Of a stretch of 64,000 nt of DNA, positions 1,915-55,611 are shown piece by piece. Both the position numbers and the translations under genes were made by a program. The notes under the pieces are model-generated. The model was not told the origin of the DNA, made no database searches, and worked only from the letters and a program-made list of their open reading frames with translations. Numbering within the stretch: position 1 is the stretch's first letter; the number at the start of each line of letters is the position of its first letter. This DNA is from a virus, in the IMG/VR virus record IMGVR_UViG_3300037840_000333, positions 23,121 to 87,120 of that record. One strand, written 5' to 3'.

Positions 1915-2037
1915 TGTGTTGCTCACCGGGCAAGCGAATGGCCGCCGGTGATCGAGGGCATCACTCCTCGGCCGGCGGCCACTCTGTCCCGACCAACCAC
2001 GACCGGGATCGTTGCTACTGCGTGAGCGGTGCGCTCG
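1915..2037 (-). ncRNA. Candidate structured ncRNA A (three-way junction, ~120 nt)
   Basis: -10 TAGCGT at 2044-2049; closing stem 1921-1926/2022-2027; 13-bp stem 1936-1948/1972-1984; 8-bp stem 1987-1994/2001-2008; no credible ORF; the next gene has its own -10. Confidence 0.55.
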
Positions 2038-2075
2038 GCTCTAACGCTAGCGCGTGGCCGGCGCCGTCGCGTCGG

Positions 2076-2402
2076 CTACTGCGCGGCGTGCGCTCCGGGT
2101 GCGTTGCCGAGTCCGACGCCGGGGGCGATCTTGGCGTTGACCGTGACCGCTGGCTTCCACCATCCGACGTAGCCGGCGACGGCCGTGATCCACGCCACGC
2201 CGATGCTGAGGGCGATCTGCTCCCACTCCCTCGTGCCGCTCGGCGGCGTGATGAGGTAGCCGCTCAGGCCGCCGGTGATGGCGGCCAACAGCCCGGTGAG
2301 GAGCGCCTTCAGCTTGGCGCTGGCGACCTCCTTCGTCACGAGGGCGATGGCGGCTGGGATCACGGTCCCGACCAACAGGCTGATGACGACGGCGAGGTTC
2401 AC
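2076..2402 (-). CDS. Holin-like membrane protein
   Basis: 108 aa, three hydrophobic segments, directly after the peptidase gene. Confidence 0.65.
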   Translation of the reverse strand: MNLAVVISLLVGTVIPAAIALVTKEVASAKLKALLTGLLAAITGGLSGYLITPPSGTREWEQIALSIGVAWITAVAGYVGWWKPAVTVNAKIAPGVGLGNAPGAHAAQ

Positions 2403-3436
2403 TGGTCCTCCTCCTCGGGCTGGGCGGTCACGTCTCCGCCGGCGTGCTTCACGAGGGCGATGATGGCGTCGATGGCCTCGTGTGCCAGCTTCTCCAACTC
2501 GGCGATCCAGTTGGGCGGGGTCGGTGGGGGCGCTGGGGGAGCCGGTGGCGGGCTCGGTGGTGCCGGTGGCACAGGTGGGTCCGGCGGTGGCTCCGGGGGC
2601 GCTGGGGGAGGCTGGGGAGGCGCTGGGGGTACCGGGACGGGTGGCACGGGGACGGGTTCGGGTGCCGGGGCGTCGCCTCCGCCGATGGCCTGCAGGTCGG
2701 CCAGCAGGGCCGGCTCAAACTGTGCAAGCTGCTCGTCCGTCGTGACGGCGAGGTAGGCCTCGCCGCCGGGGTTCTGATGCAGGCAGGCGTTCATCCACGG
2801 GATGGTGGCGCCCTGCCACACGGCCCACGTGCCCACTTGGTCGGTCCCGCTGTCGAGCGCCTGGGCCTCGCCCCACAGCACGCAGTGGCCCTCGTTCGGG
2901 TCCGGGCTCTGGCCCGGGGTCACGTCGAACGGCTGGCCCGCGTTGAACTGGTCCTCGTTGTTGTCGAACAGGTTGACGCCGATGAGGAGCCCGAAGCCGG
3001 CGCCCATCAGCCCGATGCACGTCGCCCGGTCGGTGTGATCCACCGGGCACCACGCCTTGATCTTGCCGTCGAGGTACAGGCTGTGCAGGTAGCTCGGCAT
3101 GTCGGTGCCGTTCCCGGGCGGGCTCGTGGCGCCGGTGTAGTGCTGGTAGTCCTCCACAGCCTGGGGACTGTCGGGGGACAACACGGGCGTCCCGGCGGCG
3201 ACCGCCGTGGTCATGTCGTAGTGGGCCTTGCCGGCCTCGACGCAATCGCCCCACTGGTCGTTCCCCATCATGCCGAGGTTCGTCAGCCCTTCGGTCCGGT
3301 TCACCGGGTAGGTCACGGCCACGGGCACGAGGAGGTACTGGTGGGCCCACCGCAGGTTGAATCGGTCCTCGGGGGCCCGGCGCGCCTGGCGCCCTCGCAG
3401 GCCGGACTGGCGCGGGGTGTCGAGGGTGTCCGTCAT
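2399..3436 (-). CDS. Cysteine peptidase-like protein (possible endolysin) with Pro-rich tail
   Basis: MMGNDQWGDCVEAG (Cys), EGHCV (His), TW motif of papain/C39-like phage proteins; upstream of the holin. Confidence 0.55.
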   Translation of the reverse strand: MTDTLDTPRQSGLRGRQARRAPEDRFNLRWAHQYLLVPVAVTYPVNRTEGLTNLGMMGNDQWGDCVEAGKAHYDMTTAVAAGTPVLSPDSPQAVEDYQHYTGATSPPGNGTDMPSYLHSLYLDGKIKAWCPVDHTDRATCIGLMGAGFGLLIGVNLFDNNEDQFNAGQPFDVTPGQSPDPNEGHCVLWGEAQALDSGTDQVGTWAVWQGATIPWMNACLHQNPGGEAYLAVTTDEQLAQFEPALLADLQAIGGGDAPAPEPVPVPPVPVPPAPPQPPPAPPEPPPDPPVPPAPPSPPPAPPAPPPTPPNWIAELEKLAHEAIDAIIALVKHAGGDVTAQPEEEDQ

Positions 3437-3654
3437 GGCTGGCGCTGGTCCTGGCGCCGGCCCCATGCTCCGCTGGCGTAGCCCCAGCCGCCGACGAGGA
3501 GGTCAACGAGGAAGCTGAGGAAGCCGGCGATGAACCAACTGATGTAGCTCACGCCGAATAGCTGGCCGGCGTCGGCGCCGGTGGTCTGTGCCGTGGCGAT
3601 GATGGCGAACACGGTCAGGACGACCGCGGCGACGATGAAAATGGGGAATCTCAT
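3433..3654 (-). CDS. Small 2-TM membrane protein
   Basis: MRFPIFIVAAVVLTVFAIIA..; ATGA overlaps on both sides. Confidence 0.6.
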   Translation of the reverse strand: MRFPIFIVAAVVLTVFAIIATAQTTGADAGQLFGVSYISWFIAGFLSFLVDLLVGGWGYASGAWGRRQDQRQP

Positions 3655-4112: not shown

Positions 4113-4151
4113 GGGCGGGAGCCTATCGACGCAGGCCAGGTCGCTCGCGGA

Positions 4152-4654: not shown

Positions 4655-4655
4655 G

Positions 4656-5940: not shown

Positions 5941-5994
5941 GGTCGATACCCTTCTCGTCACGGAGCGTAGCCGTTCATTCCGAGGGGCCGGTGG

Positions 5995-15561: not shown

Positions 15562-15565
15562 CGGT

Positions 15566-16955: not shown

Positions 16956-16961
16956 ACGCGA

Positions 16962-20002: not shown

Positions 20003-20496
20003 GACGCCACCGCCGTCGCCTCGTGCATCCACCCGCCGGGGATGAACCAGGTCCCGCCGCCCCACTCGCTGGCGGGGTCGCGGGGGTACATCGGCTTGAT
20101 GCGCCCGCACGAAGCCATGCGGGTTGCGAAGCCGAACCAGCCCTGCTCGATCGGACGGTCATGGGCGTCGTACAGCCAGCCGCCTTGCTTGCCGGTGATG
20201 TGGAGGGTGGCGGCGAGGGCTCGGGCTGCCTTCTCCCGGCCATCGCGGCTCTTGGTCGTGCGGTACACGCCGGGCCGGGGCAGGTGCGCCCACCGGGGGT
20301 CGGTGTCGCTGCGGACCATGTAGTGGTGCTCGTGGAGCCGGCTGCCCAGGATGCGCCGCTGGTCGTCCAGCTTGTCCCACTGCGCCTGGGCGCTCCGCCA
20401 GTCGGTGGCGGGGGAGACGATCCGGTACAGCCAGTCGCCTTGCCCTCGCTGCCGCTTGGCCTCGATGACGATGTGAAGGTCGGGGGTTGTGCTCAC
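19999..20496 (-). CDS. Hypothetical protein
   Basis: SD GGAGG; first gene after promoter copy 2. Confidence 0.65.
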   Translation of the reverse strand: MSTTPDLHIVIEAKRQRGQGDWLYRIVSPATDWRSAQAQWDKLDDQRRILGSRLHEHHYMVRSDTDPRWAHLPRPGVYRTTKSRDGREKAARALAATLHITGKQGGWLYDAHDRPIEQGWFGFATRMASCGRIKPMYPRDPASEWGGGTWFIPGGWMHEATAVAS

Positions 20497-20533
20497 GGTG
20501 ATGCCTCCGTGTGTCTCGTGGTTGGTAGTCCCA

Positions 20534-20570
20534 ACTCTAGTCGCTCGGTGCGCCGATTGCTAGCGTTTGG
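20534..20570 (-). promoter_or_regulatory. Conserved promoter copy 2
   Basis: CCAAACGC-TAGCAA-17 nt-TAGAGT. Confidence 0.8.
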
Positions 20571-20574
20571 TCAC

Positions 20575-20843
20575 TATTTCTCGCCGGGTACTGAGGAGGG
20601 CGCCCCGGCTGAGGAGCTGGTCATGTCGCCGGCGCTCAGGTGCCCGATAGCGACACTGCCGCGTAGCCCACTGGCCCAGCACATCAACCTGCTCCCCTTC
20701 CGGGGCCCTGCCGGAGCGCCCAAGCGGGGTAGGTCGCTCCCTGTCTAGCCCTCGGATCTGACGCCTCACCGAAGCGGAATCGCTACTAGGTCCACGGCCA
20801 CTCCTCCGAAAGGTCAACCGATCTGCGCTGTTCGCTCTCCAAC
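20575..20843 (-). ncRNA. Candidate structured ncRNA C (~270 nt)
   Basis: Sole content between promoter copies 3 and 2; many hairpins with UUCG and GGAA loops; no protein-like ORF. Confidence 0.55.
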
Positions 20844-20848
20844 GCCCA

Positions 20849-20887
20849 ACTCTAATCGCTCCGCCCGCCGATTGCTAGCGTTTGGCG
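20849..20887 (-). promoter_or_regulatory. Conserved promoter copy 3
   Basis: CCAAACGC-TAGCAA-17 nt-TAGAGT. Confidence 0.8.
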
Positions 20888-28244: not shown

Positions 28245-28387
28245 GAGGGTCTGTGCTCCTTTTGAGCTGGCGCGTGGTGCCTGTGATTGAGGGCGACCGG
28301 GCGCTAAGACCCTGCATCTCGATAGCTCGGCGCTAAGACCGCAGCTACTTGGATCGAGAGTCTGACCTGTCCGAAACGTGAAATCAA
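28245..28387 (-). promoter_or_regulatory. Capsid promoter and structured 5' leader
   Basis: TTGATT-17-CAGACT; two GGTCTTAGCGCC hairpin loops (28300-28311, 28329-28340). Confidence 0.6.
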
Positions 28388-28599: not shown

Positions 28600-28600
28600 G

Positions 28601-42638: not shown

Positions 42639-42642
42639 GCCG

Positions 42643-42873
42643 CTAACTCACCGTGTCGGTGCCGCTCCCCGCGTCGTCCATCGCCACCTGCTCCTCGGTG
42701 GCCGGGGCGGCGTGGGGGTTGTCGGCGATGTTCTTGTGGCCGCAGGGGGGCTCAAACACGACGGACTCAAAGCTCGCCGGGACGCTGATCGTGCCCTCGG
42801 CGCCGCACTCGCCGCAGGTGACCGCGACGGTGACGTACTCCCCCTCGGGGCCGCTCACGCCGGTCAGGCTCAT
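42643..42873 (-). CDS. Small Zn-binding protein ending in one DxGSGTD repeat
   Basis: CGECG..PPCGH; MDDAGSGTDTVS. Confidence 0.55.
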   Translation of the reverse strand: MSLTGVSGPEGEYVTVAVTCGECGAEGTISVPASFESVVFEPPCGHKNIADNPHAAPATEEQVAMDDAGSGTDTVS

Positions 42874-42874
42874 C

Positions 42875-43438
42875 TCAGCTCTCCGTGATCGTGGCCGTGG
42901 CCGTCCAGGCGCTGGCGCTCGTCTTGGTCCCGAGGGCCACGCCCTTGTGATTCAACAGGCCGCTGGCTGCGCCGCCGCTGCTGGCGCCGCCGTTGTCGAT
43001 GCCCCACTCGTTCCAGGCGAAGTTGGCGTTCCCGCTGGCGAACACGGAGATGAACGTGACCGTCTGCGCCGATACCGTCGGGCTCCCGCCCTGGGTGGCT
43101 TGGTTGTAGCGGTTGCTCGTCGCCACGAGGGTCGTGTCGGTGGCCGCCACCGTCGGTACCGTGCCGCCTCCGTCGCCCACGCAGATCCGGGCGTTGCCGT
43201 TCGCGTAGCTGGTCCCGCCGGCGGCGATGAGCAGGTTCAGCATCGTCGTGATGCCGCCGTTCAACATCAGGTTCCGCTCGGCCTCGACGGAGTCGTAGGG
43301 GTCGATGCCGGCCGCCCGTATGTCGGCCAGGGTGGCGATGCTCAGGCCGGCGTGCTCCGCCTCGGCTAGCTCCTCCGCCCGGAACTTGTCTACTCGCAGC
43401 ACCGTGAACAGTCCGAATCGGTCGAGCGCCGTGGTCAT
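42875..43438 (-). CDS. Virion fibre-anchor-like protein
   Basis: NLMLNGG, NARICVGD, ANFAWNEWG, LGTKTS; leaderless TACACT. Confidence 0.65.
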   Translation of the reverse strand: MTTALDRFGLFTVLRVDKFRAEELAEAEHAGLSIATLADIRAAGIDPYDSVEAERNLMLNGGITTMLNLLIAAGGTSYANGNARICVGDGGGTVPTVAATDTTLVATSNRYNQATQGGSPTVSAQTVTFISVFASGNANFAWNEWGIDNGGASSGGAASGLLNHKGVALGTKTSASAWTATATITES

Positions 43439-43476
43439 GCTGGGAGTGTAGGCGATGGCCTGGGCCGGGTGGCGGT

Positions 43477-43998
43477 TCATGGCAGGGCGAGCTGCGGCGC
43501 GCTAGAGAGGTCCTGCCAGGGGATGCTCTTGCTGAGCCGCACGCCGTAGGTCACGGGCTCGATGGTGCCCAGGTGCTCCTCCACGATGTAGAAGGTGTTG
43601 ACCGGGATGGTGGCCAGGTCGTCGTTCGCCATCAGGTGGGTCACCAGCACGCCGGCGCCGCTCAGCTCGACCTGGACCGGGGTGGCGGCGACCTCCTGGC
43701 CGGGCTGGCGCATGGCGGCCGTGAGCGTGAAGATCACCGTTCCCTCGGCCGGCCGGCCGTTCGGCGTCTGATAGAGGGCCGTGACGAGGATCGAGGTGTA
43801 GCCAATGGCCGCCTCGCTCACCACGGTCATCGCATCGGCGCCGCTGCCCGTGTCGGTGTCGGCGAGGGCGATGGCCAAGAAGGTGTCAGTCCCGCTCCCG
43901 GCTTGGGTCAGGCTGACCGCTCCGGGGCCGCTCGTGCCGAGTCCGCGGACGGTCAGCCCTCGGGCCTTGACGCCTCGGATGCCGGACAGGACAGCCAT
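43477..43998 (-). CDS. Chimeric adaptor: RGVK/RGLT tag + 2 repeats + ANDD domain
   Basis: N-terminus matches 38543; C-terminus matches the N-terminus of 46923. Confidence 0.7.
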   Translation of the reverse strand: MAVLSGIRGVKARGLTVRGLGTSGPGAVSLTQAGSGTDTFLAIALADTDTGSGADAMTVVSEAAIGYTSILVTALYQTPNGRPAEGTVIFTLTAAMRQPGQEVAATPVQVELSGAGVLVTHLMANDDLATIPVNTFYIVEEHLGTIEPVTYGVRLSKSIPWQDLSSAPQLALP

Positions 43999-44004
43999 GG
44001 GGGC

Positions 44005-46923
44005 CTAGATCGGGTAGCGGACGGCTACCTGCACGCCCTTCTGGCCGCTGGCGGTCCAGGGCACCGTGCCGTAGGTGCTGCTCGGGCCGTAGGTGATCCC
44101 GGCCGCGGCGGCCACACTGTCGGTCGTCGGGGCCGAGTAGGTCACGCCGGTCAGCACGAGTCCGCCCGACACGCCGGTGTAGGTGAAGGTGTGGACCGTT
44201 CCGCCGGCGAGGATCGTGCCCTGGCCGGCGGTCGGGGCGTTGTTCGGGATGGCCGAGGCGAGGGACAAGAGCGACCCCAGCGAGGCCAGGGTGCCCGGTG
44301 ACCCGTTGAAGCTGGTCGTGGTCCACTCGCCGACCTTGTTGAACGTGATCGTGTTGTTGTTGCCGGTCACGTTCGCCTGCGCCCTGCAGCCGAGCCCGTT
44401 GTCCTCGGCGAGCCCCACGGCGAAGCCGACGTCGGCCGGCGTGATCGGGAGCGTGCCGGTCAGCGTCGTGGCGTTGGACACGCCGTTGCCGCCGGTGCTC
44501 ACCGTGTCGAGCGTGACCTCGCAGTAGCCGTTGTTGATCGACCACCGCGCCACGACCGCCACCGGCAAGGTGCTGTAGCCGGTCAGGGCGATGTTCGACC
44601 AGGTGAAGTAGCTCGGGAAATCGGGGGCCCGCTGGTAGCTGTAGACGTTCGTGTTCTGATCCGGGTCCGCGCCGACGGTGTAGTCGGTGGTCGGGACGAG
44701 GTTGAGGAGCATGTTCAGCGGTGTCGCCGTACCGCCGCCGTTGTAGGTGCCGGTGCTGGTGGTCGGCACCGTGAAGGTGTTGGCGCCGGTGACGGTGATC
44801 GTCCACCGGCCCGCGATGCCGGAGATGCCGGCGGCGAAGCCTTCCAGGTCCACTTGGTCGCCGGTCGTGAACCCGTGGGCCGTGGCGGTCACGGTGGGCG
44901 TGGCCCCGATGGTGACGTTCGTGATCGTCTGCGTCAGCCTCGGGCTGTAGGTGGAGCTCGCCACCACGCCGTACTTGACGATGCCGCCCTCCGCCCACCG
45001 CAGCTTGGTTCCCTTGGCGTATTTCTGGCTGAGGTCAACGAGGGTCGTCATCGCCAGCTCCGTCGCCGACCACCGCAGCCACGGCAGCGGCTCGCTCGTC
45101 CAGCCCGGGGCGATGGGTTGCGCCTGGGGGCCCTTGTCGAAGCGCAGGCGCTCCCGCATCCACAGGGCGAAGGCTCGGTGGGTGTCGCCGCCGGCCGGGT
45201 TGTTGAGATGGTCGGCGGGGTGCAGGTGGTCGCCGGTGAACCCATACGGGTCGGCCGGGCCGCTGGCCGGGTTGGTCGAGACGTCACCAAACCGCTCGTA
45301 CAGGTCGAGCAGGGTGCACGGGGCCGCCACCGCCACCGCGGCGTAGGCGGCCTGCAGCGTGGGCCAACTGGCCGCCGCAAGCTGGCACGGACTCCCGGCC
45401 CGCCACGGGGAGATCAGCACTATCTCGGTCAGGGGGCTCGCCGCTCGGGCCAGGTTCACGATGGTCGTTATGTCGCCTTGAATCTGGCTGACGGTGCGCC
45501 CGATGTTGTTGACGTCGTTGATCCCGACCAGCACGTAGAGACGCCTGGGGAGGATCATGCCCATCAGGGTGTCCCAGCCGACATACGGCGTCCCGCTGCC
45601 GCCGGCCCACTCCTGGGCGGTCGAGCCGCCCTCGGCGATGTTCAGCAGGGCGTGGCCCTGCTCGCCGCTCCCCTGGCTGTAGATGGCCCCGACCACGACG
45701 ACGCCGCCCGCTGCTCCGCTCACCTGGGACACGAACAGGCTCCGGGTGGCCGCCGTGCCGAAATCGCCGGTGTCCACGATGACGTAGCCGCTGCTCCCGG
45801 CCGAGACGGTGGTCGGGCTGCTGTAGTTGAACTGGTAGCTGTCGCCCGTCACCGGGCCGGTGCCTCCGCCGGCCAGGTTGACCGTCACGACGTTGTCGGT
45901 CACGTCGGTGATCGGGGCGCCGCCGGTGATCCCGGTGCCCTGGCACACCTGTCCGATCTGCAGGCCGGTCACGTCGGCCAGGGCAATCGTCCACAGCGTC
46001 CCGCTCGGGTTCGCCACCGCGCCGGCCTGGTAGTTCGCCACGCCGGCGGACACCGTGAAGGTGGCGCCGGTCGTCTGCCGGGCGACGATGACCCAGGCTC
46101 GCCGGAACTGACGGGTATCCCACACGCTGCCACCGCTCGTGTTCACGCTCACGTAGGGCTGGGGCCCGATGGTCGTCGTCGCGGAGCCCGGGTTGCTCCA
46201 CGGCGTTCCCGGCCACAGCCAGAACGGGCTCTGGCAGGGGTGGAAGCCGCGGCCGTTGTCGATCAGCCCGGCGTCCCGGTTCTCCCAGTTGGACAGCGTG
46301 CTCGACCAGTCGGTCAGCCCGATGCCCGAGGTCGCTCGGTTCGGGTCGGACACGCCCTGGCCGAAGGCAATCGAGTCGCCGATCACCATGTCCACGACCA
46401 TGCTGCCGATGGTGCTCGGCGGGTAGCCCTCCATCACCACCGGCCTCGCCGTGGCGCCCTGGGAGGTGCCGTCCTGGAACGTCGCCGCCGTCACGAAGGC
46501 ATTGCTGACGATGCTCCCTGGTGGACCTGGGGCTCCCGGTGCGCCCGGTGCTCCCGGCGCTCCTGGTGGGCCGGGGGCATAGGTGGTCGGCGTGCTCGGG
46601 TTGAGCCGCTGGGCGCTCGCCAGGTCGAGGGTGCCGCCCGGGGCGGCGTGGGGCACGGCGATGTAGTAGATGTTCGGCGGGCCCGTGCCGAAGTACTCGC
46701 TCACCATGTAGGCCGCGCCGTCCGGCAAGGTGGTCGGGTCGTCGGTGGCGAACAGCTCGACCGACAGCGCACCGTCCACCAGCTCGACGGCTACTGGGAG
46801 GTCAGCGATGAACTGGCCGGGCTCCCGCAGGGGCTCGGTGAGCTGGAAACTGACGATGCCCTCGGCCGGGTCGCCGTCCGACGTCTCGTAGTTGGCCGTG
46901 ACCGTGATCGGGGTGAACGGCAT
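44005..46923 (-). CDS. Fibre/spike protein with collagen repeats and SGNH hydrolase
   Basis: (GXP)n; IGDSIAFG, NIAEGG, VGIND, DHLHP. Confidence 0.8.
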   Translation of the reverse strand: MPFTPITVTANYETSDGDPAEGIVSFQLTEPLREPGQFIADLPVAVELVDGALSVELFATDDPTTLPDGAAYMVSEYFGTGPPNIYYIAVPHAAPGGTLDLASAQRLNPSTPTTYAPGPPGAPGAPGAPGAPGPPGSIVSNAFVTAATFQDGTSQGATARPVVMEGYPPSTIGSMVVDMVIGDSIAFGQGVSDPNRATSGIGLTDWSSTLSNWENRDAGLIDNGRGFHPCQSPFWLWPGTPWSNPGSATTTIGPQPYVSVNTSGGSVWDTRQFRRAWVIVARQTTGATFTVSAGVANYQAGAVANPSGTLWTIALADVTGLQIGQVCQGTGITGGAPITDVTDNVVTVNLAGGGTGPVTGDSYQFNYSSPTTVSAGSSGYVIVDTGDFGTAATRSLFVSQVSGAAGGVVVVGAIYSQGSGEQGHALLNIAEGGSTAQEWAGGSGTPYVGWDTLMGMILPRRLYVLVGINDVNNIGRTVSQIQGDITTIVNLARAASPLTEIVLISPWRAGSPCQLAAASWPTLQAAYAAVAVAAPCTLLDLYERFGDVSTNPASGPADPYGFTGDHLHPADHLNNPAGGDTHRAFALWMRERLRFDKGPQAQPIAPGWTSEPLPWLRWSATELAMTTLVDLSQKYAKGTKLRWAEGGIVKYGVVASSTYSPRLTQTITNVTIGATPTVTATAHGFTTGDQVDLEGFAAGISGIAGRWTITVTGANTFTVPTTSTGTYNGGGTATPLNMLLNLVPTTDYTVGADPDQNTNVYSYQRAPDFPSYFTWSNIALTGYSTLPVAVVARWSINNGYCEVTLDTVSTGGNGVSNATTLTGTLPITPADVGFAVGLAEDNGLGCRAQANVTGNNNTITFNKVGEWTTTSFNGSPGTLASLGSLLSLASAIPNNAPTAGQGTILAGGTVHTFTYTGVSGGLVLTGVTYSAPTTDSVAAAAGITYGPSSTYGTVPWTASGQKGVQVAVRYPI

Positions 46924-46985
46924 CTAGCTCCTCGCTGGCCCGGTCATGGGCTGAGTGTAGGGCCTGCCGGTTCGGCGGTTGAGGA

Positions 46986-49697
46986 CTAGCTGATGGTCAC
47001 GACGCTGGTGTCGAGGCTGCCCAGCGGGTACGGCGTCGGCCCGTAGTAGTTCCAGTCGGCGTTCTTGCCCGAGTCGCTGGTGGACGGGATGCTCGTGACC
47101 GGCTTGCTGAACGGGGTCGGGCTGCACTTGTAGGTCACGCCGGCATAGCCGACGTAGTCGTTGCCGTGGTAGGTGACCGAGCTGCTCCACGCAATCGAGC
47201 CGGGCAGCGGTGTCCCGTTGTCGTTCTGCCCGTCGCCCTGGACGCAGGCCACGCCGTCGAGGGTGCAGGTGTGCAGCGTCAGGTGGGCGCCGGCGACGCC
47301 GAAGGCCACCTGCAGCTCGCCCTCCACCGTCGCCTCCTGCACCACCCACGCCGGTCCCGGGCTGCCGGCTCCCGCCTGGGTGTGGAACGCCACGTTGTTG
47401 AAGGTCACCTGAGCGCCTCCGTCGAGCCAGATCCCGGCCGGCGGGAAGGTCGGCGCTCGCACGATGTAGATGGTCCCGCCGTTGACCGTCACCAGTTTCT
47501 GGCTCACGCCGGCGCTGGCGTGGACCGTGAAGTACCGGCCCTGGCCCGCCTGGCCCAGCACGAGGTTCGTGAAGTTGATCGGGCCGGCCAGCGGGCTCGT
47601 GAAATCGATCCCGGCGTCCAGGCAGGTGAAGTTGTCCACGTCCACCCAGCCGCAGCCGCCCGAGGTGTCCGACTGCCAGTTCATGGCCTGCTCGGTCGGG
47701 TTGATGATGGTGATGTTCTGCAGTACGCAGTGGGTGCCGGTGACGCCTTGCAGCACGCCCGGTGTGATGCCCTGGCGGCCGGCCGTGTCGCCGGTGAAGC
47801 CGTTGAGGTTGACGAACGACGGCGTTCCCAGCACTTGGTCGTTCCCGAAGGTGATGCTGTCGCCGCAGGTGTCGAGCGCCGAGCAGTTGAGCATGGTCAC
47901 CGGGGACGTCGGGGTGCCCGAGGAGTCGATCTGGAATCCGGCCTGGGCCACCACCGGGGCCTGGTAGCCGGTCTGGCCTCGGTTGCCGCCGATGCTGTTG
48001 ATGTTGCTCAGGGTGACGCCATTGGCGTCCTGCACCCGGACCAGCGGCTTCGGCCCTAGCTCGCCGGCTCGGCCGTGGGGTGATCCCGGCTGGGCGGCGA
48101 ACTTGGTATGCGTGATGACGTTGAACTTGACCGGGCCGGCCACGAGCCCGGTGATGCTCGCTCCTCCGGTCGGCGTCAGGGTGATCGTGTTCGTGGCCGT
48201 GTCCACCGCCGTGATGACGACCTCGCCGGCTCCGGAGTGGATCCCGGGTCCACCGATGTACTGGATGGCCTCGACCAGCCCGCTCGAGGACGGGATGGAG
48301 AAGGGGATCGGGAGGATGCTCACCAGGTCGGCAAGCTGCAGTTGATTCGGGGCCGGGACGGCGACCGCCGTGACCTGGCCGAGATAGGGGTTGGTGAACG
48401 TGGCGTTCTGGATGGTGACGTTGGGATTGGTGATCCAGATGCCGCCCGGCGTCAGGTAGGTCTGGCCTCCTCCGTCCCATACCGTGCCGGCGCTGTTCCA
48501 GCCGTGGGCGCTCGGGGTGATGTTGGCGATATAGCCGCTCGGGTCCGGCTGCACCGCGCCGCTGGGCACGGTCAGCGTGAAGTCCTGGATCACGTCGGCG
48601 TCGATGCCGTTGTGGGCGGTGAGCACGAGGTTGTAGGTGCCGCCGGCCGTGGTCGTCCCGATGATGAGCAGGTTCCCGTTGCCGTAGGGCGTGTACGTCA
48701 GCCCGGCGGGCAGGGCGCTCCCGCCCTCGGTGAAGCTGATCGTCCCGTTGCCGGCCGCCGACACCAGGAACGCTCCGTGGACGCCGTTGCCGAACGTGGT
48801 GCTGGCCGCGGTGGTGAAGGCCAGCGTCGAGGCCACGTTGAACTGCACGGCCTGGTTGGCGGTGCCGCCGCTGTTCGTGGCCGTGATGGCGACGCTGTAG
48901 CTGCCCGGGGTCGTGGGCGTCCCGGTCAGCGCGCCGGTGGTGCCGTTCAGGGAAACGCCGGGCGGCAGGGTGCCGATGGTGAAGGCGTAGGTCGGGGCCG
49001 GGTTGCCGGCGGCGCTCAGCGCCACGTTGCTCAACGCCGTGCCCTCAGTGAAGTTGAACGTACTCGGGCTCGTCATCGTCGGCGGCGTCGTGTTGCTGTT
49101 CACGATCACGATGAACGGCTGGGTCACGGTGCCGAACCCATTGTTGGCCTGCAGGGTGAAGCTGTACGTTCCGCTGGCACTCGGTGTCCCGGTCAGCACC
49201 CAGGCGAATCGCTGCACCAGCGTGATCCCGGGCGGCAGGCTCCCGCTGATGACGCTGACGGTCGGGTAGGGCGAGCCGGTGTTACCGATCACGAACTGCT
49301 GGGGGATGCCCTGGGTGCACGCCCACGCCGGCGCCGTGGTGAACGTGGGCGGGGTCGTCGCCGGCAGCACCGCGAGGGCGATGGGCTGCGTAACGGAGCT
49401 GACGACGTTCGTGGCGGTGACCGACGTGGCGACGTTGCCGGCCTGGGTCGGCGTGCCGGCGATGCTCCCGGTGCCGTCGCCGTTGTCGGTGAAGGTGAGC
49501 CCCGGGGCCAGGGCGCTCGCCGTTAGCGTCGCGGTCGGCTTCCCGGTGGTCTGCACCGTGGCGTCCGCCGGCGTCCCGACCGTGAACACGAACACATTGG
49601 CCGACTGGAAGCCTGGGGCGAACTGCTGGGCGGGGGGCGGCGCTCCGCTCGGGCTCAGCGTCGCGCGCCGGGCGACGGGCAGGCCGGCCGGGCTCAT
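46986..49697 (-). CDS. Ig (He_PIG) repeat + beta-helix + CBM5/12-like protein
   Basis: Four LPPG.T....G.L.GTPT..G.Y Ig units; GDSI/GRQGI parallel beta-helix; AWSSSVTY..NDYVGYAGVTYKC. Confidence 0.8.
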   Translation of the reverse strand: MSPAGLPVARRATLSPSGAPPPAQQFAPGFQSANVFVFTVGTPADATVQTTGKPTATLTASALAPGLTFTDNGDGTGSIAGTPTQAGNVATSVTATNVVSSVTQPIALAVLPATTPPTFTTAPAWACTQGIPQQFVIGNTGSPYPTVSVISGSLPPGITLVQRFAWVLTGTPSASGTYSFTLQANNGFGTVTQPFIVIVNSNTTPPTMTSPSTFNFTEGTALSNVALSAAGNPAPTYAFTIGTLPPGVSLNGTTGALTGTPTTPGSYSVAITATNSGGTANQAVQFNVASTLAFTTAASTTFGNGVHGAFLVSAAGNGTISFTEGGSALPAGLTYTPYGNGNLLIIGTTTAGGTYNLVLTAHNGIDADVIQDFTLTVPSGAVQPDPSGYIANITPSAHGWNSAGTVWDGGGQTYLTPGGIWITNPNVTIQNATFTNPYLGQVTAVAVPAPNQLQLADLVSILPIPFSIPSSSGLVEAIQYIGGPGIHSGAGEVVITAVDTATNTITLTPTGGASITGLVAGPVKFNVITHTKFAAQPGSPHGRAGELGPKPLVRVQDANGVTLSNINSIGGNRGQTGYQAPVVAQAGFQIDSSGTPTSPVTMLNCSALDTCGDSITFGNDQVLGTPSFVNLNGFTGDTAGRQGITPGVLQGVTGTHCVLQNITIINPTEQAMNWQSDTSGGCGWVDVDNFTCLDAGIDFTSPLAGPINFTNLVLGQAGQGRYFTVHASAGVSQKLVTVNGGTIYIVRAPTFPPAGIWLDGGAQVTFNNVAFHTQAGAGSPGPAWVVQEATVEGELQVAFGVAGAHLTLHTCTLDGVACVQGDGQNDNGTPLPGSIAWSSSVTYHGNDYVGYAGVTYKCSPTPFSKPVTSIPSTSDSGKNADWNYYGPTPYPLGSLDTSVVTIS

Positions 49698-50050
49698 GGC
49701 GTCAGGTCTCCGCTCGCCACCCACACGTCCTGGGCGCTCGGGCTCACGACGATGCCGATGGTCGAGTACTGCGCTCGGGTGCTCAGGCCATTCGGGCTCA
49801 CGACGGTCACGCCGGTGTCGCCTTGGATCGTGACCTCGCCGGTGCCCATCTGCCGCAGGATAACGGTGCTCGCCGTCGGGAACGGGACATTGGCGAAGGT
49901 GGGCACCGTCACGGTGACGTCGGTGGACGCGTTGAACTCGATTTCGGTGCCGGCGTCGGTCAGGGCGAGGGTGTAGGCCGTCCCGCTCTGCTGGGTGATG
50001 GTGCCCGCGAGCAGGGCGATGATCTTGCCGGCAATGTCGGTCGGGTTCAC
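49694..50050 (-). CDS. Small fibre-tip-domain protein, paralogue of next gene
   Basis: QQSGTAYTLALTDAG..WVASGDLTP; GTGA overlap. Confidence 0.7.
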   Translation of the reverse strand: MNPTDIAGKIIALLAGTITQQSGTAYTLALTDAGTEIEFNASTDVTVTVPTFANVPFPTASTVILRQMGTGEVTIQGDTGVTVVSPNGLSTRAQYSTIGIVVSPSAQDVWVASGDLTP

Positions 50051-50745
50051 GGGGTCAGGTCTCCACTGGCGACCCAAACGTCCTGGGCGACGGAGCTGGC
50101 GATGACGGCGATGGTCGAGTACTGCGCTCGGGTCGCCAACCCGTTCGGGCTGTTCACGGTCACGCCGGTGTCGCCGATCACGTTGACCTGGCCGGCGCCC
50201 ATCGCCCGCAGGATGATGGTGCTCCCGGGTGGGAACGGCGCGTTGACGAACTTGGGCACGGTCACGGTGATGTTGCCGCTCCCGTCGCCGGCGCTGGTGA
50301 ACTCGATCTCGGTCCCGGCGTCGCTGAGCAGGAGCGTGTAGCTGGTCCCGCTCTGCTGGGTGATGGTGATCGGCTGGGTGTAGCTCGGCGGTCCGCCCGC
50401 TCCGGGCGAGCCTCCGATGCCCTTGGCGAAGATGGTGTAGATCCCGTTCGCCCGCATGACGGCCAGCGCGCCGCCGAGGTCGCCGTCCGATACCGCATCG
50501 ACCACGGCCGCCTCGGCGTACTGCGCCTGCCAGTAGGGCCAGCTCGGGGCCGCGGCCCAAAACGCAGCCGCCAGCGCGGCCAGCTCAAACGCGTCCGCTC
50601 CTACCCGGGCCCAGCGGTCGCCCGGGAACAGGTTGGCGGGCTCGGATGCGACGGTCAACGGATCGCCCATCCGCTCGCCGTACACCTGGCCACGGGGTCC
50701 TCTCGTCGCCGGCCTTGTCGCAAGCTGGCCTCCTCGGCTCCGCAC
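50047..50745 (-). CDS. Protein with C-terminal fibre-tip domain
   Basis: QQSGTSYTLLLSDAG..WVASGDLTP; TACACT 7 nt before GTG (ATG 50670 is an alternative start). Confidence 0.7.
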   Translation of the reverse strand: MRSRGGQLATRPATRGPRGQVYGERMGDPLTVASEPANLFPGDRWARVGADAFELAALAAAFWAAAPSWPYWQAQYAEAAVVDAVSDGDLGGALAVMRANGIYTIFAKGIGGSPGAGGPPSYTQPITITQQSGTSYTLLLSDAGTEIEFTSAGDGSGNITVTVPKFVNAPFPPGSTIILRAMGAGQVNVIGDTGVTVNSPNGLATRAQYSTIAVIASSVAQDVWVASGDLTP

Positions 50746-50767
50746 CGGCCCGAGTGTAGCGAGCGCG

Positions 50768-51247
50768 CTAGAAGCGGCCTGTGATGGCCCCTGTGCCGGC
50801 CCGGCGCACTTGGCTCACGGTCGCGCCGCAAAGCGTACAGCGGGGCCCTGAGCGTTGCCTGGGCGGGTGTACGCAGTCCCTGGGGTTGGGCCGGGGCCGG
50901 GTTGGCGGTCTCGGGCCGCCGACGACCATCGGGTCCGCTTTCCGGCGCTCGTCGCGGATGGCTCGGGCGTCGGCTCGCACCCGGGCCTCGTACTCCTCGA
51001 CGGTCTCGCCTTCGGGCTCCTGGGCGACCTCATCGAACTCGACGCCGGCCAGCGCCAGGCGCTCCCGCTCCTCGTGCAGCTCGACGGCGCTGTCGAGCAC
51101 GGCGCGCTCCCAATCGGACTCGGCCAGCCCGCAGTCGTCCGCCGCCCGCTGGATGCGCGTCTTCAGCGTCTTGCTGCACCGGAGCTGTATGCGCTCGGTG
51201 AACGGCTGATGGTCCGCCAGGACCTCGCGGGCGCTGCGCTCAGCCAT
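50768..51247 (-). CDS. Ribbon-helix-helix DNA-binding protein with C-terminal Zn finger
   Basis: RIQLRCSKTLKTRIQRAADDCGLAESDWER; CVHP..CTLCG. Confidence 0.6.
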   Translation of the reverse strand: MAERSAREVLADHQPFTERIQLRCSKTLKTRIQRAADDCGLAESDWERAVLDSAVELHEERERLALAGVEFDEVAQEPEGETVEEYEARVRADARAIRDERRKADPMVVGGPRPPTRPRPNPRDCVHPPRQRSGPRCTLCGATVSQVRRAGTGAITGRF

Positions 51248-51536
51248 GCCGGTTCTGCGCTCGGGCTCGGGCGACCCGGGCTCGCTGCTCGGCTTTCACC
51301 GCTCGATTCCATGGCGCCTTGGTCGCCGGACCGGCCGGCTTCCCTCGGAGTCCTGGCTGGCGGTGCCGCCGGCGGTAAATGGCTCGCTCGGTGCTCGGCT
51401 GTAGGCGCCCGATGTGGCTCGGCGGCGTGGCGACGTTCCGGGGCCGGCTGAGGATGGCGAGCGCCCGCCGGTCGGCTTCGGCCTGCTTCGCCTCTCGGAT
51501 GCGGGCGTTGCGCCCTCGGATGGTGGTGGTGGTCAT
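51240..51536 (-). CDS. Basic Arg-rich protein
   Basis: Leaderless TAGCGT 6 nt before ATG. Confidence 0.5.
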   Translation of the reverse strand: MTTTTIRGRNARIREAKQAEADRRALAILSRPRNVATPPSHIGRLQPSTERAIYRRRHRQPGLRGKPAGPATKAPWNRAVKAEQRARVARARAQNRHG

Positions 51537-51564
51537 GCCGCCACGCTAGCGGACGGCCCGGAAA

Positions 51565-51715
51565 CTTCAAGATCCCCGGCCGGTGGGCTCGGGGCTCTTG
51601 TGAGGCTTGCGGCCTCGGGTGTTCTGGCGATGGTCCCGGTGGGGTTGCAATGACCCTGCACACATCGGGTAGGGGTGCGCCGTTCTCTGGCCCCACCGGG
51701 TGGTGTTGGCGCTCT
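51565..51715 (-). ncRNA. Candidate structured ncRNA D (~150 nt)
   Basis: -10 TAGCCT 51722-51727; perfect 10-bp stem 51635-51644/51691-51700; two further hairpins. Confidence 0.4.
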
Positions 51716-51724
51716 CGGGGGAGG

Positions 51725-52195
51725 CTAGCTGGCCTCCCTGTGGCGCTCCACCAGCAGGTCGATGACCTCTCGCCGGGTGTGCCGCCAGTTGATGAACGGG
51801 CCGTTCGGTCCCTCGCCGCGCCACTGGCCGCTGAAGTAGATGTGGACCACGAGCCCTGGGCCGGCAACCTCATCCAGCCGGGCCGCCTCCTCCAACGCCA
51901 GCCAGTCCACGAGGTCGTCGCCGGGGGCGAAGGCTTCGCGGCTGGTGGCCGGGCGGCTGGCGGTCCGCACGGTGACGGTCCGGGTGCCGATTTCCGCCTT
52001 GGCGTTCCGGGGCACGTCGCCGTCGGTCCGCTTCACCAGCTTGCTCAGCAGGCGCAGGCGCCGCAGCGCCTCGGTCTTGGTGAAGGTCCCGAACTCGGGC
52101 ACCGCGACCGCCGGCCAGTGCGGCTCGGGGGTCGGCGCCGTCTCCTCGGGGTCGGGGGCGTCGAGGGCTGCGAATGTTAGCTGGCGGGCGCTCAT
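51725..52195 (-). CDS. Hypothetical protein
   Basis: ATGA coupling. Confidence 0.55.
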   Translation of the reverse strand: MSARQLTFAALDAPDPEETAPTPEPHWPAVAVPEFGTFTKTEALRRLRLLSKLVKRTDGDVPRNAKAEIGTRTVTVRTASRPATSREAFAPGDDLVDWLALEEAARLDEVAGPGLVVHIYFSGQWRGEGPNGPFINWRHTRREVIDLLVERHREAS

Positions 52196-52452
52196 CGCAC
52201 GACCTCGTCCTCGACCATGTCGAAGATGAACTGATCGAAGTGGCCGCGGTTGCGGAGCCGGCGGTCCTCGGCGCGGACGGTGGCCTCCGAGTCGGAGCCA
52301 CGGATGATGACGATGCGCCGGGGGAGACCGGGGATGCCTTCCATCGGCAAGCCACGGGTGGGCTCGGCGACGCGGGCCAAGATGAACCTGCTGGTCCGGG
52401 TGGTCCGCTTCACGGTGCCGTCGGGGGCGGTGATTTCGCGTGTGCTGTTCAT
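52192..52452 (-). CDS. Hypothetical protein
   Basis: Leaderless start after promoter copy 4. Confidence 0.6.
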   Translation of the reverse strand: MNSTREITAPDGTVKRTTRTSRFILARVAEPTRGLPMEGIPGLPRRIVIIRGSDSEATVRAEDRRLRNRGHFDQFIFDMVEDEVVR

Positions 52453-52459
52453 GTGTCGA

Positions 52460-52498
52460 AGTCTACGCTCTCCGCCGGCGGATTGCTAGCGTTTGGCG
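52460..52498 (-). promoter_or_regulatory. Conserved promoter copy 4
   Basis: CCAAACGC-TAGCAA-17 nt-TAGACT. Confidence 0.8.
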
Positions 52499-52613
52499 CA
52501 CATTTCCTCGGCCGGGCGCGCAGCAGCCCTGGGGCCAACGAGGGGCAACAGGTTGGGGCTCCCAGGGCTGCTGAACACTCGCCGTGCGGCGAGCTGGTGG
52601 TGCCTCGTCCGGG

Positions 52614-52940
52614 TTACTTGTGGACGGGTGTCCCTGGCACGAGTCCGATGCCGGTGGCGGGGCTGGTGGTCACGTCAACGGCCAAGGTGGCCGTCACTGG
52701 CGCGGCGTTCAGCGTTCCGGTCACCGTCACCACGGTTCCGACAGCCTCGGGTCCCTCGGCGGTCACCTGGACCGCGGACTGGTCGGCGCTGACCACTGCG
52801 GTCAGGATCGTGGCGTCCGAGACGGAAGCTGCGGCGCTACCCGCGTCGAGGCTGACACCGGGGACGCTGTTGCCGGCGTCGTCGGTGGCCTGGATCGCCA
52901 CGGGTACGGTCTGATCGTCCTGCAATACGAAGTCAGGCAC
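52614..52940 (-). CDS. Small Ig-like protein
   Basis: SD AAAGGA; all-beta pattern DDAGN..SVSDATILT. Confidence 0.65.
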   Translation of the reverse strand: MPDFVLQDDQTVPVAIQATDDAGNSVPGVSLDAGSAAASVSDATILTAVVSADQSAVQVTAEGPEAVGTVVTVTGTLNAAPVTATLAVDVTTSPATGIGLVPGTPVHK

Positions 52941-52958
52941 GGCGGGTTTGTCCTTTCG

Positions 52959-53159
52959 CTACTTGTGCCGGGGCGTTCCTGGCACGAGCTTGATGCGTGT
53001 GGCCGGCGGCGTGGTCATTTCCAGTCGGATCGCCCCGGTCGCGTCAACGATGAGCCCACCGCTGACGGTGACCGGGATGCCTTCAGGGAAGTGGTGGTAC
53101 ACGTCCACCCGGATGCGTTGTGCCGCCCCGGGGTCCGTGACCTCCTCGTCGCCGTCCAC
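52959..53159 (-). CDS. Small protein sharing its C-terminus with the next gene
   Basis: Leaderless TAGGGT; PATRIKLVPGTPRHK. Confidence 0.55.
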   Translation of the reverse strand: MDGDEEVTDPGAAQRIRVDVYHHFPEGIPVTVSGGLIVDATGAIRLEMTTPPATRIKLVPGTPRHK

Positions 53160-53205
53160 GCGCCGGACCCTAGCAGGTGGGGGCCCGGCGCGTGGGGCGT
53201 TGTGC

Positions 53206-53727
53206 CTAGAAGCCGGGACCGCCCACAGACGCCGAGCCGGTGCTCGGGCTGCAGTCCTCGTAGTAGTAGACGAACGGGTTGCCGCCTGAATCGAAGCAGG
53301 GCATGTTCTCCGTGCCGAACAGATTGACGTACTGCGTGCCGTAGATGAACGCCGCCCCGGTGGTGCCAGGGAACACGCCCGATCCCATCTGCGTCGTGCT
53401 GTTCCCGGCTGAGCTGCCTGCTACCTCAGCGTAGATCTGGACTGAGGGGGTGTAGGTGAACGACGACGTGAAGGTCGATTGCGGCCAATAGCCGATGGCG
53501 GTCCCGTTGTAGGTGAGCATCCACAGGGAGCCATATTCGACAATGCCGTACTGTGCGGTTGTCCCTGGCGTCACCACACTGCCCACTTGCATCCCGGTGC
53601 CGAGCGGGACGTAGTTTGAGCAGTTGCCACCGGGTGGACCGTTCGCATCGCAGCCGCCGCCGTTGCCGAAGTCTTGCGCCGAGAACAGGTGGGCGTTCGT
53701 GTCTCCGTAGTAGCTCGGCGCCGCCGG
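53206..53727 (-). pseudogene. 5'-truncated neprosin-like glutamic peptidase domain
   Basis: Frame upstream of ATG 53592 reads PSYYGDTNAHLF; IGYWPQSTF; YAEV..TQMGSGVFP; blocked by TGA at 53728-53730. Confidence 0.65.
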
Positions 53728-53774
53728 TCAGGGGCAACTCCTGCTGCTCCATGCTTGCTGATGCTAGCAGCCAG

Positions 53775-55433
53775 CTAACGCATGTCCTCGGGGCGCACCC
53801 GCCGGCCGCCAAGCTGCTCGCTGATGATCCGGCCCTGCCTCGTGCTCGGGGGGATGCTGCCCACCCGGGGGCGGCTGGTCTGGCTGCTCCGCTCGACCTT
53901 TTGCTTCGGGATCCGGCCGTCGGCGACCTCGACCTTGCCGGTGCCGGCGTTCGCTCCCAGCAGCAGGTCGGTGGCGGCGAACACCACGGCATCGAGTCGG
54001 TCCGGGCTCCACGTGCTCGGCTCCTCGCCCTCGGCGCCGGCGGTGTACTCGGGGTCGCCCGGGTCGCCGGCGTCGTCGTGCTCGGGTGGCACCCAGTTCG
54101 TGAGCTGGAACTCCAACTGCGCCAGGTGGCCGACGTGGTGGACCTTGCCCTGCTCGTAGAGCTGGTGGACGGGCTCGGCCCGAAGGCGCTTGCCCTTGCT
54201 GGCGAACACCAGCCCGAACGGGATGCGGATGCCGAGCTCTCGGCTGGTCGAGCGCATCACCAGGCGCACCTGCTCGGCCTGGAAGTTGCCCTCCCCCACC
54301 ACCCGCTCGCTCCGCCGGCCGTAGTACTCCCGGGGCTCGGGGGGCACGTAGTTGCCATCCTCGTCCCGCTGGTGCAGGTCGTCGTGGGTCGGCATGTAGC
54401 CGAGGGCAGCGAGCTGGCCCCACTCCATCGGCGTCACCCGCCGGCTGAGGTCCGCCAGCACGTACACGTGGCGGTGCCGGCTGATGCCGGCGACGATGAT
54501 GCCGCACTCGTCGTGGGTCGTGCCCCAACTCGGGTCCACGTAGGTCCGCACCCGCAGCAGCGCGGGTACCTCCTCGGCGCTCACCCGGTGCTGCTCGATC
54601 AGCTCCTGAGCCCACAGGGCGCCGGTGACCTCCTCGAGGATCAGCCCTTTCAGCTCTTGCAGCCCGAGTCGGGTGTTGCCGTACTGCTCGTAGAGCTGGT
54701 GGCGGATCTCCTCGGGCAGGTACGGATTGTCGTCGGTCTCGGCCGTGCTCAGGCAGACGATGCTGCTCGTGCTGAGCTTCCTGATCGTTGGCCGGGGCCT
54801 CGGCGTCGTGGCGCCTACCCAGCGCGGGTGGGGGCCGCTGCGGAGCCCGAGGTCGGCCTGGGCCACGCCCTCACGCAGGTAGCGCCAGGCGGCCAGCTCC
54901 TCCCGCACGTCGAAGCAGCGGTTCCCCTTGGCTCGCAGGCGGTCCACGTCGGACAGGGTGTGGACGCCGAACAGGAAGGCGAAGGCGCCGTTCGGCCATT
55001 TGGCGACGGTGCCGCCTTTCTGCGTGACCTCCTTCACGTCCGGGTTGATCGTCACCAGCCCGTCCACGCCGTGCACGATGGAGGCGCTGGCGTCGCCGAA
55101 GGTCGGGGCGATGATGCCCATGCGGTGGGGCACTCGGCCGGGGAAGCACGCCGGGCCGTTCGCGTGCTCGTCCATGGCGTGACACACGGCCGCTGTCTTG
55201 CCGACGCCTCGCCCGCCCATCAGGAGCCACCCGTGCCACCGCTCCTCGATGTTCGGATGCCGCTGGTGGGGTAGTGGCTCCCACGGCGGCCTGGGCGGTT
55301 CTAGGGCCTCGATGCGCTCCCACAGCGCCTCGCGCTCCGCCGGCGGGTAGCTCTCGACCAGCGCCACGATCTGCTCGGGCGTGACGTCATCGCCGAGCAT
55401 CCATTCCAGGTCGTCCTCGGCCGCGAGCGCCAC
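53775..55433 (-). CDS. terL: Terminase large subunit
   Basis: GGRGVGKT Walker A, EELAAW, TTPR, DNPYL, YVDP, GKRLRAEP, SPDRLDA. Confidence 0.95.
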   Translation of the reverse strand: MALAAEDDLEWMLGDDVTPEQIVALVESYPPAEREALWERIEALEPPRPPWEPLPHQRHPNIEERWHGWLLMGGRGVGKTAAVCHAMDEHANGPACFPGRVPHRMGIIAPTFGDASASIVHGVDGLVTINPDVKEVTQKGGTVAKWPNGAFAFLFGVHTLSDVDRLRAKGNRCFDVREELAAWRYLREGVAQADLGLRSGPHPRWVGATTPRPRPTIRKLSTSSIVCLSTAETDDNPYLPEEIRHQLYEQYGNTRLGLQELKGLILEEVTGALWAQELIEQHRVSAEEVPALLRVRTYVDPSWGTTHDECGIIVAGISRHRHVYVLADLSRRVTPMEWGQLAALGYMPTHDDLHQRDEDGNYVPPEPREYYGRRSERVVGEGNFQAEQVRLVMRSTSRELGIRIPFGLVFASKGKRLRAEPVHQLYEQGKVHHVGHLAQLEFQLTNWVPPEHDDAGDPGDPEYTAGAEGEEPSTWSPDRLDAVVFAATDLLLGANAGTGKVEVADGRIPKQKVERSSQTSRPRVGSIPPSTRQGRIISEQLGGRRVRPEDMR

Positions 55434-55477
55434 GGCCGGATGCTAGGCGCGCCCGGACCTCGTTGAGGCTACCCGGG

Positions 55478-55589
55478 GGCGAGACGCCTGGGCCGTGGTG
55501 TTGTGCGCTCTCAGAGCACCCCGTTCGCCGCTCACGCCTTCACCGTTCCGTATCCGCGGCCGTCGGGTCAACTGCGTGGACGTCTCGGG
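55478..55589 (-). ncRNA. Candidate structured ncRNA B (~110 nt)
   Basis: -10 TAGCGT 55595-55600; ends pair (55480-55486/55581-55587); inner stem 55491-55498/55554-55561; terL has a separate -10. Confidence 0.5.
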
Positions 55590-55611
55590 TGCGAACGCTA
55601 GCGCCTATCGG

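Follow-up and report, generated by a model that had tools for sequence, protein, structure and literature searches.

The IMG/VR virus record IMGVR_UViG_3300037840_000333 is a linear sequence of 87,120 nucleotides (nt) with a GC content of approximately 70% and a CheckV completeness estimate of 92%, of which bases 23121-87120 form the stretch of 64,000 nt analysed here (the window). The minus strand carries all genes with a coding signature of high GC content at third codon positions (GC3), and on the same strand are located four gaps without open reading frame (ORF), designated A (1915-2037), C (20575-20843), D (51565-51715) and B (55478-55589). Gap A lies between a gene with a weak holin match and a gene for a Mu Gam-like protein (Pfam PF07352), which is followed by the gene for a single-strand annealing protein. 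Gap D precedes a leaderless gene starting at 51536, and gap B precedes terL, the gene for the large terminase (53775-55433, 552 amino acids), the nearest named relatives of which are from Streptomyces phages with approximately 40% identity. The sequence is contained in DNA runs of soil metagenomes, one of which (X3) holds the same phage with zero differences and hence provides no natural variants, while parts of it are present in two soil metatranscriptomes. A tRNA search of the window found none.

That the gaps are real and non-coding on the gene strand, as held by an earlier note on this DNA, is borne out by codon composition, as GC3 amounts to 0.82-0.97 in genes versus 0.60-0.79 in every frame of every gap. 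The earlier note had gone further and proposed that the gaps give rise to a set of four structured RNAs that stand alone, each headed by its own -10 element and followed by a separate promoter for the next gene. The observation is partly confirmed by the present analysis; the four-member RNA repertoire is not supported.

With respect to the promoters, the predicted -10 element, a TANNNT hexamer, is indeed present at the start and at the end of each of the four gaps. Across the window the hexamer is 2.7-fold rarer than dinucleotide shuffles predict (92 copies versus 245 expected), and 40 of the 69 gene-strand copies in the 87-kb genome are intergenic. In 21 cases, approximately 30% of the gene-strand copies, the hexamer stands 5-8 nt ahead of the start codon (ATG or GTG) of a high-GC3 frame, without a Shine-Dalgarno sequence, as in leaderless -10-only promoters of the actinobacterial type. 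These cases include terL (GTG at 55433) and the gene at 51536, for both of which the leaderless promoter described earlier was recovered with the hexamer 6 nt ahead of the start codon; the terL start position also agrees with 14 homologues. Two predicted TANNNT starts have the edge of an RNA-library contig 8 and 18 nt downstream (53151 versus 53159 and 60119 versus 60137, respectively). A standard sigma-70 scan gave zero sites in any of the four gaps. The virus appears to rely heavily on leaderless transcripts, and many leaderless genes open with CA-rich codons (ATGACCACCACCACC, ATGAGCACACACACC).

Beyond the bare hexamer, two extended promoter families can be distinguished. The class 1 motif, (G)CGCTAGCGT(TAGCG), is normally placed 17-32 nt past the preceding stop codon, with the start codon following 6-7 nt later; CGCTAGCGT has six copies in the window, on the minus strand only, versus 0.37 expected, and three more upstream of the window. 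Class 2 is a cassette of approximately 55 nt, GAGAAA-N-CCAAACGCTAGCAATCGGCG-N-TAGAGT, with four copies in the window (counted as AACGCTAGCAATC) versus 0.00 expected and two copies beyond it. All promoter-motif copies together number only about 15, and three of the four gaps (A, B and C) open with a copy of one of the two families (Table 1). A and B both open with GCGCTAGCGTT, in agreement with the common promoter context previously ascribed to them. The layout of a -10 element, a non-coding segment and a further promoter therefore holds for A, B and C, but is only nominal for D, where the TAGCCT overlaps the upstream stop codon and no repeated promoter motif is found at the gap head. As judged from the sequence, transcription of the non-coding segments is plausible for A, B and C, since the promoter-like signals of these three gaps are members of motif families that recur on the gene strand only. 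This statistically strong promoter grammar, composed of bare TANNNT, two extended cassettes and many leaderless genes, aids the annotation of an otherwise unknown 87-kb soil virus.

Table 1. Features of the four gaps and their borders (positions in the window; minus strand throughout).
Gap	Feature	Position	Details
A	Class 1 promoter motif, upstream copy GCGCTAGCGTTAG	2041-2053 (-)	-10 TAGCGT at 2044-2049; 22 nt past the stop codon of the holin-like gene
A	5' arm (anti-leader) UCCCGGUCGUGGUUGGUCGGG	1988-2008 (-)	Complementary to leader and Shine-Dalgarno sequence of the Gam-like gene (21 nt, 86%)
A	Strong hairpin	1936-1984 (-)	Terminator-like without U-tract; tail AUUCGCUU; -40.3 kcal/mol, rank 23 of 1425
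A	Class 1 promoter motif, second copy	1885-1897 (-)	-10 at 1888-1893; serves the Gam-like gene; extra TAGGGT at 1900-1905
A	Leader of the Gam-like gene CCCGACCAACCAC	1843-1873 (-)	AGGAG at 1852-1856, ATG at 1843-1845; 3' arm of the long-range helix
C	Class 2 cassette, upstream copy	20845-20885 (-)	-10 TAGAGT at 20849-20854
C	GGAGGAG, then GTG and 9-codon open frame (MDLVAIPLR)	20766-20807 (-)	No coding signal
C	Long imperfect hairpin	20602-20706 (-)	Immediately precedes the next promoter; z significant only for the gene strand
C	Class 2 cassette, downstream copy	20530-20570 (-)	-10 at 20534-20539; then leader ACCAACCAC...GGAGG and GTG at 20494-20496
D	7-bp hairpin at the gap head	51719-51738 (-)	Stop codon TAG of the upstream gene (51725-51727) in the loop; TAGCCT at 51722-51727
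D	Three hairpins	51568-51700 (-)	51634-51700, 51602-51616 and 51568-51600; the last followed by AAGUUUCC
D	Class 1 promoter CGCTAGCGT	51536-51551 (-)	-10 at 51543-51548, with the leaderless ATG (first base 51536) 6 nt further on
B	Class 1 promoter motif	55595-55603 (-)	No ORF behind
B	18-mer GAGAGCGCACAACACCAC	55495-55512 (-)	Other copy in gap D, 51700-51716
B	-10 TAGCAT of terL	55431-55445 (-)	TAGCAT at 55440-55445, 6 nt before the GTG (first base 55433)

The second part of the original observation, that each gap folds extensively, was assessed by z-scores on the minus strand relative to 200 dinucleotide shuffles. Folding no better than shuffles had been named beforehand as an outcome that would speak against the proposal, and it is what was found for B (z +1.32) and for C as a whole (z -0.20), while A (z -2.86), D (z -3.47) and the 3' part of C fold better than their shuffles. 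Among 395 gene-strand background windows of 140 nt (mean z -0.40, standard deviation 1.11, minimum -4.18), 3.3% are below the value of A and 0.5% below the value of D, and several of the windows with the lowest z are other gene junctions. Folding of D is confined to the gene strand (z -0.17 on the plus strand), and A folds alike on both strands. Extensive folding by itself is not special in this genome, as strong local folds are the norm at 70% GC: with a span of 70 nt, 1425 non-overlapping local structures were predicted genome-wide, with energies of -24 kcal/mol or below in 719 cases, and among all 1425 the best local structures of D, C and B rank only 167th, 249th and 665th.

Neither do the gaps resemble each other. 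Pairwise local alignments of the transcribed parts (A-B, A-C, A-D, B-C and C-D) all score at chance; for A and B outside the promoter, 81 of 300 shuffles score equally well. The octamer CACGCAGT, proposed to link A and B, is present at 2017-2024 and 55571-55578 as reported, but fails as a link because the genome contains nine copies, and AACAC, put forward as a common feature of A, B and D, is a common word with 129 genome copies. B and D do share the 18-mer GAGAGCGCACAACACCAC, that is GAGAGCGC(A)CAACACCAC, the two copies of which are the only ones in the genome; close to it, TAGCCTC is found in both gaps. The statement that no known RNA family is matched holds, as a search of the window against 4227 Rfam models gave nothing at gathering thresholds. 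Permissive scans of each gap (E <= 10) returned only matches of 9-23 bits versus thresholds of 45-111 bits, and signal recognition particle (SRP), c4 (RF01695) and packaging RNA (pRNA) families were absent among the gap matches at this cut-off, including any SRP family for gap C.

These results bear directly on the view that the gaps constitute one repertoire of stand-alone structured non-coding RNAs acting in trans as protein sponges, anti-defence decoys or packaging RNA. A -10 hexamer at the head of each gap, the folding of A, D and part of C and the 18-mer unique to B and D are consistent with it, and actinobacteriophages provide a precedent: Cluster A mycobacteriophages produce abundant small non-coding RNAs that are promoter-driven, originate from ORF-free stretches and have been defined by RNA-seq signal and Northern blots (PMC5712189). 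While the ORF-free stretches with promoter signals are alike, the gaps of the present virus have no sequence similarity to deposited phages, and, among the RNA-library matches listed for 41000-60999, coverage of a gap is seen on D, where it is continuous with the upstream coding sequence. Together with the missing common sequence or structure, the shuffle-level folding of B and whole C and the pairing of A with its own downstream leader described below, this makes the repertoire very improbable. As the proposed family of four RNAs is absent, there is no call to pursue the gaps as a new RNA class.

The strongest feature of gap A, not noticed before, is a pairing with the leader and the Shine-Dalgarno sequence of the gene downstream, and A is thus tied to the next gene rather than set apart from it. 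An inverted repeat (2008-1988 and 1873-1853, CCCGACCAACCACGGACAGGA) with arms 114 nt apart is 86% complementary over 21 nt, whereby CCCGACCAACCACGGACAGGA corresponds to the leader plus the first Shine-Dalgarno bases of the Gam-like gene. The perfect core of this complementarity is 14 nt, a length that none of 1000 gap shuffles reaches (maximum 11). The longest perfect complement was used as test statistic in place of the duplex energy of the whole gap with the downstream mRNA start, which is not discriminating in GC-rich sequence. Among 112 gene starts, the own leader ranks second as a pairing partner of the anti-leader. The four gene-strand copies of ACCAACCAC all lie in 5' leaders, approximately 3-11 nt upstream of the Shine-Dalgarno sequence (20518-20526, 1861-1869, and 10401 and 13679 nt ahead of the window start), and an action of the anti-leader in trans on all four was considered and rejected, as only its own leader ranks high. 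Two of the ACCAACCAC leaders are nearly identical through GGAGGCATCACCGTG, which resembles a common leader module.

Structure prediction distinguishes two transcripts of the Gam-like gene. The read-through RNA, taken from the predicted start site of the distal promoter (2037) through the first 25 nt of the gene (1819), has a predicted energy of -110.6 kcal/mol and a z of -5.05 (0 of 200 shuffles), beneath all 395 background windows, which are shorter at 140 nt. Its predicted long-range helix covers the leader, the AGGAG and the spacer, ends 1 nt short of the AUG and encloses the hairpin 1984-1936 as well as the proximal promoter. On the other hand, the short mRNA that begins at the proximal promoter lacks structure (z +0.87).

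The simplest reading of these predictions is that A serves as an anti-ribosome-binding-site insulator, the steps of which are inferred from sequence and structure prediction. The hairpin would stop most transcripts arriving from upstream; in transcripts that read through, the anti-leader would pair with the Gam-like leader and Shine-Dalgarno sequence and bury the ribosome site, so that the recombination genes would stay untranslated, while mRNA from the proximal promoter, devoid of the anti-leader, would stay open and translatable. A would thereby act as a translational insulator at the boundary between the holin-like gene and the recombination module. The distal promoter copy agrees with the class 1 consensus over 13 nt; were it to fire and transcription to end at the hairpin, the anti-leader would in addition be set free as an RNA of approximately 100 nt. 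The arrangement is comparable to a leader that sequesters the ribosome-binding site in combination with tandem promoters, as the segment in A is predicted to pair with leader, Shine-Dalgarno sequence and spacer of the next gene, only transcripts begun upstream would carry the segment and the proximal promoter would give an open mRNA. In contrast to such leaders, the helix in A spans 114 nt, with a terminator-like hairpin and even the proximal promoter inside it. Element A can be considered a well-supported regulatory structure, on the basis of the folding model, of a known mechanistic kind, and would give a concrete illustration of how a junction can keep read-through transcripts of an early recombination module from being translated.

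Gap C has a different architecture. It opens with a 41-nt copy that is 90% identical to the class 2 promoter of the next gene and lies 315 nt from it as a direct repeat. The first 100 nt at the 5' end are unstructured (z +0.54), while the 3' stretch 20601-20745 (145 nt), which contains the 105-nt hairpin, reaches a z of -2.66 on the minus strand versus -0.44 on the plus strand. The hairpin abuts the upstream edge of the next promoter cassette, and a like arrangement is found at 52520-52572, where a hairpin stands ahead of a class 2 copy with its -10 at 52460-52465. The operon ending at 20926 lacks a hairpin between its end and the first class 2 cassette, so that the long hairpin is also the first structure able to stop it. 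The duplication of the cassette is convincing, and C can be described as a tandem duplication of the 41-nt promoter cassette around approximately 270 nt of non-coding DNA, of which only the last 105 nt form a predicted strand-specific hairpin, sited where a terminator for incoming transcription is to be expected. The distal cassette may give rise to a 250-nt RNA of its own, may raise the expression of the downstream gene or may be a leftover.

An alternative explanation is that at least A, and perhaps C, is a true small-RNA gene with its own promoter, a single-stranded portion at the 5' end and a terminator hairpin at the 3' end. The RNA of approximately 100 nt from A would then be an antisense RNA encoded on the same strand as its target, the leader and ribosome site of the adjacent Gam-like mRNA, in the manner of c4 in phage P1. 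C4 RNA acts by pairing over the ribosome site of its target icd. The P1 genes c4, icd and ant belong to a single operon, and full repression of ant depends on C4 RNA (PMC8198154). The anti-leader of A likewise lies upstream of its target leader on the same strand, and the predicted complementarity likewise covers the target ribosome site, so that A is possibly a c4-like antisense RNA by analogy, although A has no match to RF01695 at E <= 10 and host type and GC content differ.

In A and C, the exact copies of the class 1 and class 2 motifs stand 22 and approximately 40 nt past the preceding stop codon, respectively, where these motifs are usually found; this suits a small-RNA gene, as does the order of promoter, 55 nt and hairpin in A, the extended anti-leader complementarity and the strand-specificity of the hairpin in C. 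However, no U-tract terminator was found in A or C, the 5' part of C lacks structure, and its longest match to the leader of the next gene is 6 nt. In A, the pairing is equally workable in cis, and the anti-leader does not pick out the other ACCAACCAC leaders. The placement of RNA-library contigs covered 41000-60999, with D and B inside. We therefore hold the small-RNA gene to be possible, if unlikely. Its most explicit version is doubtful to us as well: a c4-like but sequence-unrelated RNA of approximately 100 nt from its own promoter in A that would pair with the leader of the Gam-like/annealing operon and time the recombination module, accompanied by a second non-coding transcript of approximately 250 nt from C, in an actinophage-like virus with same-strand antisense control.

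Alternatively, the additional promoter copies found in A, B and C might be evolutionary leftovers, empty or decayed gene cassettes from recombination between repeated promoter cassettes, with functionless DNA in between. Such a process has a precedent in the PeSL of T4-like phages, short repeated intergenic cassettes of promoter and stem-loop, the stem-loop stopping upstream transcription, which mostly head small genes of unknown function (PMC2839356, PMC4122927). In the present virus, small accessory genes are also headed by repeated promoter cassettes; the usual layout is a stop codon, approximately 30 nt, the promoter and a leaderless ORF, and A and B keep the promoter without the ORF. Furthermore, the stretch past the anti-leader in A has a weak direct similarity to the Shine-Dalgarno/start region of the Gam-like gene, equalled by 18 of 500 shuffles, which hints, on sequence grounds, at an old tandem duplication. 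On the other hand, the gaps hold no remnant of a coding signal or of protein similarity, yet the promoter copies are intact, and the 14-nt perfect complement in A looks maintained. C is unlike the downstream unit outside the promoter; its origin as a duplicate of the leader/start region of the next gene was rejected, as the alignment beyond the promoter is at chance. Leftover cassettes are consequently an improbable explanation. As to the PeSL themselves, the hairpins in A, C, D and at 52520-52572 similarly end just upstream of the next promoter, but they lie outside the repeated sequence, which comprises two promoter families, and the promoter consensus, with its about 15 copies, is unrelated to sigma-70.

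Gap D is covered by RNA-library sequence. An exact contig of 226 nt from the metatranscriptome X4 (51573-51798) includes 74 nt of the coding sequence upstream and runs across the stop codon to a point within the last hairpin of D; it is weak evidence, as it is an assembled contig with a depth of 2.5 over D, of which neither ends nor strand can be read. This contig fits a 3' untranslated region and terminator block rather than a self-contained transcript from TAGCCT. That the X4 library tracks RNA levels rather than DNA is argued by a tenfold deeper contig (depth 28.7) over two small genes at 52600-53151, the deepest within 41000-60999 and present also in the metatranscriptome X5. D would accordingly represent the structured 3' untranslated region and the terminator block with which the upstream operon ends; the promoter that serves a leaderless gene comes after it. 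The two small ORFs under the deep contig (52959-53159 and 52614-52940) are paralogous with like ends (LVPGTPRHK and LVPGTPVHK) and without a family match; ORF 52959-53159 is leaderless behind TAGGGT at 53167-53172, and the hairpin 52520-52572 lies downstream.

Gap B, finally, has no significant structure either alone or in context (z -0.87), and no repeats were found within it. Among the matches listed, there is no exact RNA-library contig over B, which is uninformative either way. A phi29-type pRNA beside the terminase gene was considered and rejected, as B lacks any Rfam match and its folding does not surpass that of shuffles. B may be best described as an unstructured spacer of 150 nt between an orphan class 1 copy and the leaderless promoter of terL.

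Cumulatively, it is fairly probable that the gaps are four different non-coding operon junctions, and not one RNA family, in a virus that starts most of its transcription units from bare TANNNT, often directly on the start codon. Several points weigh against this interpretation. The upstream promoter copies of A and C match their families exactly, which argues that they are kept for a reason that the junction model does not require. The helix in A is all Watson-Crick and could equally be an inverted repeat at the DNA level. A terminator scan of all four gaps found no canonical U-tract terminator: A, C and D have GC-rich stems, but no U-tract there meets the scan rule (tails AUUCGCUU in A and AAGUUUCC in D), so that hairpin termination is inferred. 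The RNA contigs are blind to starts, ends and strand, and carry-over of DNA is possible. Lastly, the junction model has no comparative support, as the searches for relatives in IMG/VR, JGI and GTDB yielded no usable DNA.

In these searches, the nearest terL in IMG/VR was 46-47% identical, on contigs without both promoter motifs, and JGI metagenome contigs gave two loci at 39-54% identity. Promoter-pattern scans of IMG/VR gave chance matches only, in unrelated, mostly low-GC contigs, and GTDB genomes gave nothing by protein or by promoter pattern. For the proteins encoded on either side of A and C, IMG/VR contains no relatives, and A and C themselves matched none of 50,697 phage records by blastn. 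None of the closest known kinds of element discussed above is a homologue of these gaps. In the protein database, metagenomic relatives of terL with 60-66% identity are encoded on ENA and Logan contigs of 67-95 kb. Several relatives of terL have 690-830 amino acids and contain Hint or intein domains (PF13403, PF14890); the terL of the window is without intein. Directly downstream of terL, 53206-53592 matches the Neprosin domain (PF03080, E 5e-12), and TAGCAT together with an ATG at 53766-53749 suggests a longer leaderless form of this protein, perhaps starting at 53751.

Two further stretches of the window are not listed in the earlier note. The region 59154-59392 (239 nt) has a lower GC content (0.64) and neither a called gene nor a class 1 or class 2 motif. 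Upstream of a gene for a protein of 976 amino acids, 28245-28600 contains a non-coding stretch of approximately 150 nt and two copies of GGTCTTAGCGCC. Ahead of the window, 439-576 nt before its start, the promoter-like CCGCTAGCAT is followed by a non-coding leader of approximately 125 nt that contains CACGCAGT, a layout like that of gap B.

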